DNA from: an uncultured virus (IMG/VR IMGVR_UViG_3300025789_000002)
Taxonomy: Duplodnaviria > Heunggongvirae > Uroviricota > Caudoviricetes
IMG/VR virus record: IMGVR_UViG_3300025789_000002
Strand: one strand, 5' to 3'
Length of the DNA stretch: 64,000 bases
Shown here: piece after piece, positions 23,698-46,924 of the stretch
How positions within the stretch are numbered: position 1 is the first letter of the stretch
Layout: each line of letters begins with the position of its first letter
The notes under the pieces: model-generated
The model's database searches: none
Seen by the model: the letters and a program-made list of their open reading frames with translations, nothing else
What the model was told of the DNA's origin: nothing
Position numbers and translations under genes: made by a program

Positions 23698-24057
23698 TTA
23701 TGATGAGCTAATAATACCAGCTTTTTCTTCGTAATGGTGTATTCGGTGGCAGTTAGCGCATAGGACTATGCATTTTTTAATTTCTTCGTATGCTTTTGTG
23801 AACTGCTTATTAGAGACTAGTCGATTAACGTTGTACTCTTTAGTGCTTGGGTCTTCGTGGTGAAAGTCTAGTGCAGCTATATGGTCAAACCCACACTTAG
23901 TGCATTTAAGGCCTCGCTTAAACTCTGACCATGTTTCTTTTTGTTGTGCTTTGCTTGCTTTATTTTTTTGTATTATTTCTTCTTGGTTTTTTAAGTAGTG
24001 CTTACGGCTGTATTCCTTGTGTTTCTTTTTTCTTGTACTCTCGTCTTTGTACGGCAT
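23698..24057 (-). CDS. HNH endonuclease
   Basis: CTKCG...LDFHH...KC.VLCANCHRIHH. Confidence 0.85.
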   Translation of the reverse strand: MPYKDESTRKKKHKEYSRKHYLKNQEEIIQKNKASKAQQKETWSEFKRGLKCTKCGFDHIAALDFHHEDPSTKEYNVNRLVSNKQFTKAYEEIKKCIVLCANCHRIHHYEEKAGIISSS

Positions 24058-24490
24058 CAGGATCTAGCTTTCTTTTCCAATAGCATGCGTTACGGAAGGA
24101 CCACGGTTTCCCCGGAGTATACATCTTAAACCCGGCGTTGATTAAAGAATTTGCACTAGCTGGATTATTTGTCGTGTCTGTAATGCACCACGCCCAGCCT
24201 AACTTCTTAGCTTGCGCAAGGCGAACTTTAATCATACGCAGCTGCAGTCCATGACCTGTAAAGCCATCCATTACACCTGCCCTACATAAGTAACCTGTAT
24301 CTGTCCATTTGATCGAGCGTACCAGACCCGCAAAACCTATGGGCTTCCCACATTCTGCATAAGCTATCCACCAATGCCCACGATCCGGAGTGTACGGTTG
24401 GTCTTCCGGCAAAATCTTTCTCTGAAGAAATAGCAACAGATTCTGAATTGCTGGGTTTCTTATATCGACTTTTCTTACTGTGAACTTCAT
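24002..24490 (-). CDS. GNAT-family acetyltransferase
   Basis: YLCRAGV...GHGLQ.R...N.ASANSL..AGF. Confidence 0.75.
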   Translation of the reverse strand: MKFTVRKVDIRNPAIQNLLLFLQRKILPEDQPYTPDRGHWWIAYAECGKPIGFAGLVRSIKWTDTGYLCRAGVMDGFTGHGLQLRMIKVRLAQAKKLGWAWCITDTTNNPASANSLINAGFKMYTPGKPWSFRNACYWKRKLDPDAVQRREYKKKETQGIQP

Positions 24491-24633
24491 GCATCGTCCC
24501 CCCTCTCGTGAAACTAAATTATATAGGTGGGGGTGTGGGAGGTAAACGACTTATGGGGGGTACTTCTAGAGAATGGGCTAGTCTATATAGCCTGGTAACA
24601 AAGCATGGGGGTGGGGGCCTTAGCCCCCTGATA

Positions 24634-24750
24634 TTACTTAGTGAACTGCTTGAGGCTGGAGATTACTGCATTTACCCAGAACTCGTTAAGTTGTTGAACT
24701 TGCTTAGCTAAATCTTGAAACTTCTTTTCTGCGTCTTTGAAATCGAACAT
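24634..24750 (-). CDS. 38-aa amphipathic peptide (below the ORF-track cutoff)
   Basis: MFDFKDAEKKFQDLAKQVQQLNEFWVNAVISSLKQFTK; AGGAG RBS, own promoter, GC hairpin at 24613-24628. Confidence 0.75.
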   Translation of the reverse strand: MFDFKDAEKKFQDLAKQVQQLNEFWVNAVISSLKQFTK

Positions 24751-24781
24751 TGTGTTCTCCTAATAGGGGTTAATTTTGTGT

Positions 24782-24812
24782 AGTATATTACACAATTTGC
24801 TGCGCTGCAACA
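24782..24812 (-). promoter_or_regulatory. Sigma70 promoter with overlapping PhaR/PhbF-like box
   Basis: TTGCAG-17bp-TATACT; TGTTGCAGCGCAGCA covers the -35. Confidence 0.65.
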
Positions 24813-24832
24813 TTGTTACTAGGCAGTTTTTG

Positions 24833-25150
24833 ATATGTATAGTATTTGCAGCTTTGTAGACATGTTCTGGCGATATGTACATTTTTGTCGACATTTTATA
24901 CACATTGTGCGGCCTATTAGCAGTTTGGTTGACTTATAAATAAGGCTTTAAGTGGGTTACGGACTCATTAATGAGTCATTTCTTTTTCTTATAAAATACC
25001 CCGTTCGGGAATATTTTCCTACATTTGCCTACTTTTTCATCAATTCTTCCCGTTCGGGAAACTTTTTTATACCTATAGGTTGGAATTGCTTTGTTGTTTT
25101 GATACCTATAGGTATCAATTTTATGCCTGTCGATGTCACATGTTTGCACG
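24833..25150. repeat. Cluster of paired short palindromes (operator-like)
   Basis: GACTTATAAATAAGGC/GACTCATTAATGAGTC; CCCGTTCGGGAA x2; ACCTATAGGT x2; TGTAGACA/TGTCGACA. Confidence 0.7.
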
Positions 25151-25215
25151 GGTTTTCTTTTTAAAATCATATAGTTACAGCGTTATTTTTTAGAGGTGGT
25201 TTTCAAATTTTTTAT

Positions 25216-25233
25216 ATACCCCCCGGGGGGTAT
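25216..25233. repeat. Perfect palindrome ATAC6G6TAT
   Basis: ATACCCCCCGGGGGGTAT. Confidence 0.8.
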
Positions 25234-25423
25234 GCACTATAAAGAGGCATGGGGGTACTTATTGCCGATTTTATTTTTGATATATCTACTGTGCAAAACA
25301 CTGTGTATGTATTGCAGTAGGTACCATCTAAGCGAATCGGGTTGGTGGGGGTATGGTGGGGTTGGCTGGCTGGCATGACATTCTGAGCTGGGGCTAAGAT
25401 AGTCTAAATTAGTTTTGGTTTTC

Positions 25424-26830: not shown

Positions 26831-26859
26831 TTGACATTGTAATGATTCTCTGTTATACT
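26831..26859 (+). promoter_or_regulatory. Strong sigma70 early promoter
   Basis: TTGACA-17bp-(TG)TATACT. Confidence 0.85.
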
Positions 26860-45810: not shown

Positions 45811-46700
45811 GCGAAATTACTTTATTTAACCAAGACTTACCTGACTATTTAAAAGACGTAGAATTAGATGCAGTAACTAAAGCCCTAGTCGGTAATGGTG
45901 GTAGCAAGCGTATTTCTTTGCGTGGTGGCAAGTTCCGTATGGTTGTAAATGGCGAGGAAATCCTTACTAGCAATAGCGATACTTTGAATGTAGTTATCGT
46001 TAACGCTGCTAAGGATGTATCTCGTACTTTTTATGAAGGCGTATATAACCCTAAAGAAAAAGCTGGACCTCCTGATTGTTGGTCCGCGGACGGCGTAACC
46101 CCTGATGCTTCTATAGCAGAACCACAACATCATAATTGCGGTGAGTGCCCACAAAATATTAAAGGGTCTGGTGCAGGTGGTGGTCGTGCGTGCCGTCACT
46201 TCCGTAGGATTGCAGTAGCATTAGCCGACGATATCGGTGGAGACATCTACCAGCTCACTTTAGCTTCAAAGTCTATTTTTGGTAAGGGAGATTTAAACCA
46301 TATGCCATTTGAGCAATACGCTAAGTATGTAGGTTCACAAGGCTATAACTTAAATACTTTATCTACTGAGATGCGCTTTGATGAAGATAGCGATACTGCT
46401 AAGTTGTATTTTAAACCCTTGAAGTTCTTATCCAAAGAACAATGGGAAGTTGCTAAGAAGCAAGGCACAACACCAGCAGCTATTAAAGCCGTTGAGATGA
46501 GCGTACCTAAAAACCCAACAGGCGAGAATGCTCCGAAGTTAGTTGCACCTGCGTATATCCATAGGGACGTACCAAAGTTTGAACAAGAAGAGCCTGAAGT
46601 AGCAGAACCTAAGAAACGTGCTGAGAAAAAAGCTGTGGAACCTACGCCTAAGAAAGACCTAAAAGCTATCATGGGTGACTGGAGCAAAGAATCAACATGA
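45807..46700 (+). CDS. Putative ssDNA-binding/annealing protein
   Basis: RISLRGGKF...P.CWS.DG..P...C..CPQN.KGS...RAC; charged tail. Confidence 0.6.
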   Translation: MSEITLFNQDLPDYLKDVELDAVTKALVGNGGSKRISLRGGKFRMVVNGEEILTSNSDTLNVVIVNAAKDVSRTFYEGVYNPKEKAGPPDCWSADGVTPDASIAEPQHHNCGECPQNIKGSGAGGGRACRHFRRIAVALADDIGGDIYQLTLASKSIFGKGDLNHMPFEQYAKYVGSQGYNLNTLSTEMRFDEDSDTAKLYFKPLKFLSKEQWEVAKKQGTTPAAIKAVEMSVPKNPTGENAPKLVAPAYIHRDVPKFEQEEPEVAEPKKRAEKKAVEPTPKKDLKAIMGDWSKEST

Positions 46701-46924
46701 GTCTAAGAGGCTATAGCTACCTCCTTGTAAAAGCCAATAAAGCTGCTGACACTAAAAGTATTGGAGTCAAGCTGGGTAGGTATTGCATTGCTAATGACAT
46801 TGAAGTTGCACGAGTTGCTGCAGTATTAGGCGTAAGTCGTATGACGGTGTATCAATGGTTTACTGGCAAGGCAACCCCTCACAAGGATAAAGTAGACAGA
46901 ATACAAGAGCTATTAAGTAAATAG
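46697..46924 (+). CDS. XRE/Cro-like HTH regulator
   Basis: VAAVLGVSRMTVYQWFTG. Confidence 0.8.
   Translation: MSLRGYSYLLVKANKAADTKSIGVKLGRYCIANDIEVARVAAVLGVSRMTVYQWFTGKATPHKDKVDRIQELLSK

Follow-up and report, generated by a model that had tools for sequence, protein, structure and literature searches.

A 38-aa amphipathic peptide gene in an uncultured tailed phage is preceded by a palindrome of the PhaR/PhbF type, and this box is conserved upstream of the gene throughout the phage family. We propose, with a probability of about 0.5, that the gene forms a unit controlled by the PhaR protein of the host, that its product adsorbs to PHB granules and that carbon is released for the phage. The operator is well supported by sequence comparison, and the role of the peptide is inferred. 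The window, that is, the whole stretch that was analysed, is the first 64,000 nucleotides of a virus record of 68,695 bases, which has direct terminal repeats and is 100% complete according to CheckV.

Elements of the minus-strand unit and its setting

The preliminary description had proposed a self-contained unit of promoter, RBS, 38-aa ORF, hairpin and box, and all of these were found at the positions given here. The palindromic operator, TGCTGCGCTGCAACA = TGTTGCAGCGCAGCA, lies at 24798-24812 and covers the -35; its core, TGC-N3-GCA, is at 24801-24809 and with the A/T-rich arms it spans 24795-24815. The putative -35, TTGCAG (24805-24810, minus strand), is followed after a 17-nt spacer by the putative -10, TATACT (24782-24787, minus strand), and 47 of the 70 relatives have a TATA[A/C]T-type hexamer with this spacing to the box (42 of class I, with the box over the -35, and 5 with both arrangements). 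The RBS, AGGAG (24757-24761, minus strand), is 6 nt ahead of the ATG, and a purine-rich RBS precedes the same start in the relatives. The gene (24634-24750, minus strand) runs from the ATG at 24750 to a TAA at 24636-24634, encodes MFDFK...QFTK, and is followed 5 nt past the stop by the hairpin GGGGGC-TAAG-GCCCCC (24613-24628, minus strand, -14.5 kcal/mol). Thus the promoter and the GC hairpin are where they had been claimed to be, but the -35 agrees with TTGACA at only 3 of 6 positions and there is no U-tract after the hairpin on the minus strand. The TTGCAG-17-TATACT promoter was not among the calls of a consensus promoter scanner. A hairpin follows the gene in 63 of 74 relatives, with a T tail in 17 of those 63, and it is a candidate for a weak or factor-dependent terminator or for a 3' stabiliser.

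Sequence comparison revealed another palindrome of 18 bp, TGTGTAATATACTACACA, with the -10 at its centre (24777-24794). No other exact TGTGT-N8-ACACA occurs in the genome. Half of the relatives (35 of 70) have a TGTRT-N8-AYACA-like element 14-15 nt from the start of the PhaR core, and the palindrome is a candidate second operator or leader hairpin. In two relatives in which the -10 has moved (L301 and L024) this palindrome is still perfect, and the two differ by a compensating swap. The unit had no match in Rfam.

The unit heads the minus-strand packaging module, which consists of GNAT, HNH, probable small terminase (TerS), TerL and portal genes. The next gene, the GNAT acetyltransferase (24002-24490, minus strand), has a promoter-like TTTACC-17-TATAAT of its own (24518-24546, minus strand; scanner, 10 of 12 match), which suggests that the peptide unit stands alone. 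The plus-strand genes lie back to back with the unit and are driven by two TTGACA-17-TATACT promoters. Palindromes and short repeats, in part shared with related loci (5-22 of 60 each), cluster between the divergent arms at 24950-25260 and are possibly origin or packaging signals. The gene order is similar to that of the HTVC023P-like podophages (HTVC023P, HTVC027P and DSL-LC04), whose TerL and major capsid proteins are 52-59% and 62-64% identical, respectively, to those of the window; unlike the window phage, DSL-LC04 has no peptide gene and, at the one site checked, no intergenic box. When the 66 window proteins were compared with PHROGs, neither an integrase nor an RNA polymerase was found.

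Conservation of the box in the phage family

Counted within the window only, the motif hardly exceeds chance: TGNTGCNNNGCAA has 3 matches compared to 0.96 expected, a number reached by 4 of 100 shuffles, and the bare core TGCNNNGCA occurs 25 times compared to 22.3 expected, which is the chance level. It is conservation in the family that raises it. Among 220 viral loci collected through TerS or peptide patterns, without using the box, 104 had the gene; 74 of these were distinct and 70 had at least 120 bases upstream. The strict core TGCRNYGCA was present within 120 nt upstream of the gene in all 70. Of 135 further ORFs in these loci that have an RBS, only 2 were preceded by it, and it turned up in 0.36% of 1,400 shuffles. 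A metagenome scan in which 65 loci were examined added 27 distinct ones, and the core was found in all 21 that had enough upstream DNA. The co-occurrence of box and ORF in related phages, on which the preliminary description had staked its proposal, therefore extends to 91 of 91 distinct family loci, all chosen without using the box, although the kinship of these loci means that this figure overstates their independence and does not stand for 91 separate events. The TerS proteins of the family loci range from 22 to 100% identity to that of the window, and the family consensus of the box is WWWTGYTGCANYGCAACAWAA.

The position of the box relative to the promoter varies. With promoter hexamers assigned by pattern in the 70 loci, 42 have the box over the -35, 19 have it three bases beyond a TATAAT-type -10, 5 show both arrangements and 4 some other one. 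On a 45-row TerS tree, which carries a warning for two long branches, the past-the--10 geometry requires 10 changes, 9 of them forced by supported branches, compared to a mean of 10.7 after shuffling. Since the geometry is unclustered on this tree, the promoter has been rearranged repeatedly while the box stayed. That the box is kept as the -10 shifts argues that it is an operator and not a by-product of the -35. The unit itself was found at four genomic sites. In most loci it lies just upstream of the packaging module; of the three other sites, one is behind the major capsid gene. A scan of 20 virus records with a stricter 15-nt pattern gave 19 sites, and of the 18 that were checked 12 were at the family gene and 6 within coding sequence; the intergenic box occurs once per phage genome.

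Comparison with bacterial PhaR/PhbF sites

In PMC3206438, the footprint motif of Herbaspirillum seropedicae PhbF, which represses phaP1 and phbF, is given as TG[N]TGC[N]3GCAA, and this motif is fitted by the window site and by 68 of the 70 sites of its relatives. PMC12542648 describes for Sinorhizobium meliloti PhaR a 21-nt consensus with A/T arms, whose sites flank the -35 or lie between the -10 and the start; 54 of the 70 relatives fit this consensus and the window site misses it at position 1.

When GTDB was scanned with the commonest phage form of the box, 120 loci of an estimated 880 were taken, nearly all from Proteobacteria. In 92 of these loci 114 downstream ORFs were called, and 92 ORFs were scanned after 22 near-duplicates or doubtful calls had been dropped. 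PHB genes stood behind the exact phage-type box in 43 of the 120 loci: 37 of them Phasin_2 (36 above the cut-off), 3 PhaR, 1 PhaC and 2 of PHB depolymerase families, so that in this sample of 120 of an estimated 880 phasins were the commonest gene behind the exact box. Starting from the phasins instead, the box was found within 260 bases of 24 of 30 phasin genes in 22 small Burkholderiales genomes. A matrix built from the 42 sites of these phasin promoters scored 24795-24815 at 22.0 bits, the best site in the 68,695 bases of the genome, and the next best at 14.9 bits. The phage box agrees column by column with the bacterial phasin-promoter consensus TTATGTTGCACTGCAACATAA, and several bacterial phasin promoters share the promoter-box geometry of the window. 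Family conservation, the phasin-promoter matrix and the bacterial phasin and phaR loci thus lend strong comparative support to the suggestion of the preliminary description that this is a PhaR/PhbF operator, and we consider it very probable, judging from sequence, that host PhaR binds and represses the box. PhaR was absent from all five near-complete phage genomes, and the reader of the box would therefore be the PhaR of the host. A sigma-54 promoter was rejected, GG at -24 being present in only 8 of 70 loci.

Other bacterial genes were also seen behind the box. One is a DUF1127 gene (L385:963-1124), and others are helical genes of about 95-102 aa with no Pfam match in Smithellaceae, Syntrophaceae and other deltaproteobacterial records (L392, L407, L425 and L456), two of which (L392 and L407) are divergent from phaR. 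These four are candidates for unannotated phasins.

Candidate host

A literature search did not find the host of this phage group, and the host is deduced here from phage DNA links. With an 11-kb phage query, 13 genomes matched among the 241 of one Burkholderiales genus (that of G096), compared to 1 of 401 order-wide, the single order-wide match being a chance 29-mer. The 29-nt match in G401 was rejected: it falls within a coding gene, and there is no CRISPR-like array. Contigs of this phage group were binned in G602 and G476, and the 2.0-Mb chromosome of G503 has a prophage-like region with a GNAT that is 59% identical to the one next to the unit. In the same genome, a prophage-like region (L599:7570-9217) holds two ORFs, which we take to resemble a diversity-generating retroelement accessory protein and a reverse transcriptase. 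Outside the unit, the window has a tandem GACTCAT..ATGAGTC palindrome (24930-24984) with 79-85% identity to candidate-host chromosomes, and it is common to about ten genomes of the genus. In those chromosomes the palindrome precedes a gene pair coding for an HTH and a HipA-like protein (L593-L597), and in three phage loci (L038, L058 and L092) it sits within the leader of the peptide gene; it is possibly a second host-repressor site or a decoy. From these indirect links, namely the co-binned contigs, the prophage-shared gene and the palindrome, the host is probably a PhaR-bearing Burkholderiales genus. The genomes of this genus are near 2 Mb with 42-46% GC, which fits Polynucleobacter. PhaR (PF07879) is carried by all five linked genomes tested. 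In the order to which L430, a Burkholderiales locus, belongs, 142 of the 201 genomes sampled have it. In the candidate-host genomes the box precedes phaR and a phasin. In all five candidate-genus genomes inspected (L601, L602, L603, L609 and L614) a box also lies about 40 nt before a gene of 321-330 aa with an N-terminal hydrophobic segment. Capsid matches in Burkholderiales, at 48% or less, were uninformative on the host, and a tRNA search of the phage found none and gave no clue.

The 38-aa peptide and its family

The unannotated amphipathic ORF of the preliminary description proved to be a real gene. A search with a profile of 27 sequences gave a phage family of 583 protein clusters at 90% identity, and phmmer gave 22 representatives at 50% identity. 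When 27 loci were fetched through the neighbouring TerS-like protein, 20 held a homologue of the peptide; of the other seven, five had fewer than 400 bases upstream, one had 1,607 and one (L008) had 5,000, and in this last both the gene and the box are absent. Some relatives can dispense with the gene, as G420 and DSL-LC04 are without it. Where it is present, pN/pS was 0.14 across 45 close pairs, which indicates purifying selection. Longer "homologues" were rejected because their start had been called too far upstream, so that the frame runs through the box. P0170 resembles a chimera and P0131 is unrelated to the family.

The 68 distinct peptides are 37-49 aa long with insertions near the N-terminus, the net charge is 0 or +1 in 66 of them, and their helical periodicity peaks at 100 degrees. 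The amphipathicity of the window peptide exceeds that of shuffles (moment, p=0.0015), z exceeds 2 in 97% of the 68, and their mean hydrophobic moment is 0.42 compared to 0.30-0.33 in phasin sets. AlphaFold2 folded a 49-aa relative (L014) as one helix with a pLDDT of 89.5, and the 38-aa product is accordingly predicted to be a single amphipathic helix; it has no hydrophobic stretch long enough for a membrane span. Trp25 is invariant in 83 members, and F2, F4, K9, E12, N22, F24 and K34 as well as the motif NEFW are near-invariant. The family matched no known family in Pfam, PHROGs, NCBIfam or PDB sequences, and in the ESM Atlas only unnamed clusters were found, at 0.79 or below; none of these searches supports the label "HicB family nuclease" that JGI gives to some members. 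No match was found among cultured phage records, and no cellular homologue was found in the samples searched, namely GTDB (with one pattern), 401 Burkholderiales genomes and 241 genomes of the candidate genus.

Relation to phasins and other small genes behind the box

The term mini-phasin, used in the preliminary description, fails as a statement of ancestry and is reasonable as a working analogy. According to PMC5658603, the phasin Pfam families are PF09361, PF05597, PF09602 and PF09650; no phasin family was among the Pfam matches of 27 members or the NCBIfam matches of 83, while a positive control (L560) matched Phasin_2 at 3.3e-29, and hhalign against four phasin groups gave probabilities of 0.2-1.2%. 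The composition also differs, with 5% Ala and 18% Phe/Trp/Tyr in the peptide compared to 17-24% and 4-8%, respectively, in phasin sets. The peptide is like phasins, and like MinP, a 48-aa fragment of PhaF (PMC7267194), in that it is predicted to be all-helical and amphipathic over its full length, and its size is near that of MinP. It differs from phasins in having no detectable homology, in being one third as long as the shortest phasin fetched and in being rich in aromatic residues and Lys/Glu and poor in Ala. By analogy, it may act like a phasin fragment but it is not demonstrably a phasin. PMC7267194 reports that MinP and the whole tag bind granules equally strongly, that MinP falls short of full phasin activity and that it gave no higher PHA yield, so that a short binder is not bound to function as a phasin.

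A box-first scan of viral contigs covered 120 loci of about 900. The peptide family was behind the box in 6 and other small helical proteins in 12, 18 together; the 12 comprise a 70-81-aa family in 7, a 39-41-aa aromatic family in 4 and one 74-aa protein. Helical proteins of 70-81 aa are in L112, L145, L148, L180, L202, L207 and L209 and, separately, in L110, and two of them have sub-threshold matches to Phasin_2 (L202, E 0.0023; L145, E 0.024). The 39-41-aa amphipathic family (L126, L173, L179 and L210) has 74 clusters, and its motif V..FW.NY echoes the V.EFW.N of the window family; hhalign between these two families gave 12-26%, compared to 11-29% for reversed controls in other pairings. DUF3563-like phage ORFs were also seen behind the box (L184:357-512, sub-threshold at E 0.0017, and L192:75-248).

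Proposed mechanism and alternatives

In the proposed mechanism, host PhaR on the operator would keep the promoter of the unit off, and PHB granules would draw PhaR away and switch the unit on, likely only in hosts with stored carbon. The amphipathic helix would then adsorb to the granule surface, where it would likely aid the host depolymerase and so free carbon for phage production. Given PhaR control, it is rather likely that the peptide binds granules. Adsorption, with carbon release as the likeliest purpose, is favoured for these reasons: PhaR control delivers a protein when granule surface exists and PhaZ depolymerase attack requires phasins such as PhaP1 and ApdA (both from PMC5658603), the hydrophobic moment is above that of phasins, MinP binds granules, and other helices are linked to the box. 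That the purpose is mobilisation and not mere shielding is the weakest step. Tentatively, and with the balance tilted against it, one may imagine that several unrelated aquatic phage lineages independently joined the host PhaR regulon, each with its own granule-binding helices of 35-80 residues, and that a lytic phage gauges PHB as it enters, then strips the granule or opens it for virions. On that reading, phages would channel the bioplastic reserves of bacteria into the viral shunt, and the helices would be minimal PHB-binding peptides of a new class.

What counts against the granule surface as the target is that an invariant Trp and a near-invariant NEFW are more in keeping with one specific partner than with the surface of a generic polymer. 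The PhaR-controlled helix could instead bind a protein of the granule machinery, such as a phasin bundle, the granule-binding domain of PhaR, PhaC or PhaZ, and redirect carbon in this way. The other near-invariant positions and the nearly constant net charge favour this, and since phasins pack as helical bundles via hydrophobic faces (PMC5658603 and PMC5180188) a free helix could enter them. However, peptide length varies through insertions near the N-terminus, and several unrelated or barely related helices stand behind the box in other phages, for which a shared physical property is the better fit. We regard a protein partner as a minor possibility.

Amphipathic helices can also bind membranes. 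PhaR may serve only as a gauge of host carbon, with the peptide acting elsewhere, for instance at the inner membrane in lysis timing or superinfection exclusion, or in packaging. Most units are just upstream of the packaging module, PhaR regulons extend beyond PHB genes (PMC12542648), and lysis timing has been proposed for CtrA sites in other phages (PMC9437464). On the other hand, the unit also occurs at the three other sites, it is followed by a hairpin of its own, a separate promoter-like site precedes the next gene, the exact box most often precedes phasins, and the peptide has no membrane-spanning stretch, so that action elsewhere seems rather unlikely.

It is improbable that the palindrome is read by another regulator, be it a phage repressor or some other host factor. 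Palindromes abound in the intergenic region, a second one overlaps the -10 in half of the loci (35 of 70), and PHROGs labels an HTH gene at 46697-46921 a transcription regulator, but there is no box near this gene or at the strong early promoters at 26831 and 27744, the intergenic box is single in each genome, a sigma-54 pattern is rare, and the box matches the bacterial phasin-promoter consensus column for column. Finally, the marginal count in the window and the likeness of TTGCA to TTGACA might suggest a -35 by-product or chance, and the box might also act only as a sponge, soaking up PhaR while the phage DNA is copied, but these readings are largely refuted, as the box is retained in the 19 loci where a -35 role is impossible, a sponge would have no need to stay with this one promoter at four genomic sites, and a relative without the gene is also without the intergenic box.

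Comparison with known systems

If PhaR control and granule binding by the peptide are true, the use of stored carbon by phages in abundant aquatic bacteria becomes directly testable. The box would also offer a marker for host prediction in a large group of uncultured phages, as the host must carry PhaR, and the family would offer hundreds of natural candidates of about 40 residues for PHB-binding tags. No published phage phasin, phage PhaR site or phage acting on PHB granules was found in the main texts of open-licence PMC and bioRxiv papers, where "phasin" labels in phage tables could escape a search; host-factor control of phage genes is known, and control via a PHB sensor is without published precedent found in this open-licence literature.

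The closest known system is the PhaR/PhbF/AniA-phaP repression circuit of PHB-storing Proteobacteria (PMC3206438, PMC12542648). The phage unit shares with it an operator TGC-N3-GCA with TG..CA and A/T arms, the placement of the box on the -35 or between the -10 and the start, and a small amphipathic helical product. It differs in that the phage has no phaR and one site per genome, and in that its product, of 37-49 aa, shows no sequence kinship with phasins. Host regulators of DNA damage or of the cell cycle are known to be read by phages; LexA controls temperate phages. Phages of Alphaproteobacteria have promoters with CtrA sites that are read by the host factor (PMC9437464), and like these CtrA- and LexA-read promoters, the site of a host regulator would here let the phage sense the state of its host. 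Unlike in those phages, no integrase was found among the 66 window proteins with PHROGs, the signal would be a carbon-storage polymer, and the single site is tied to one mobile micro-gene.
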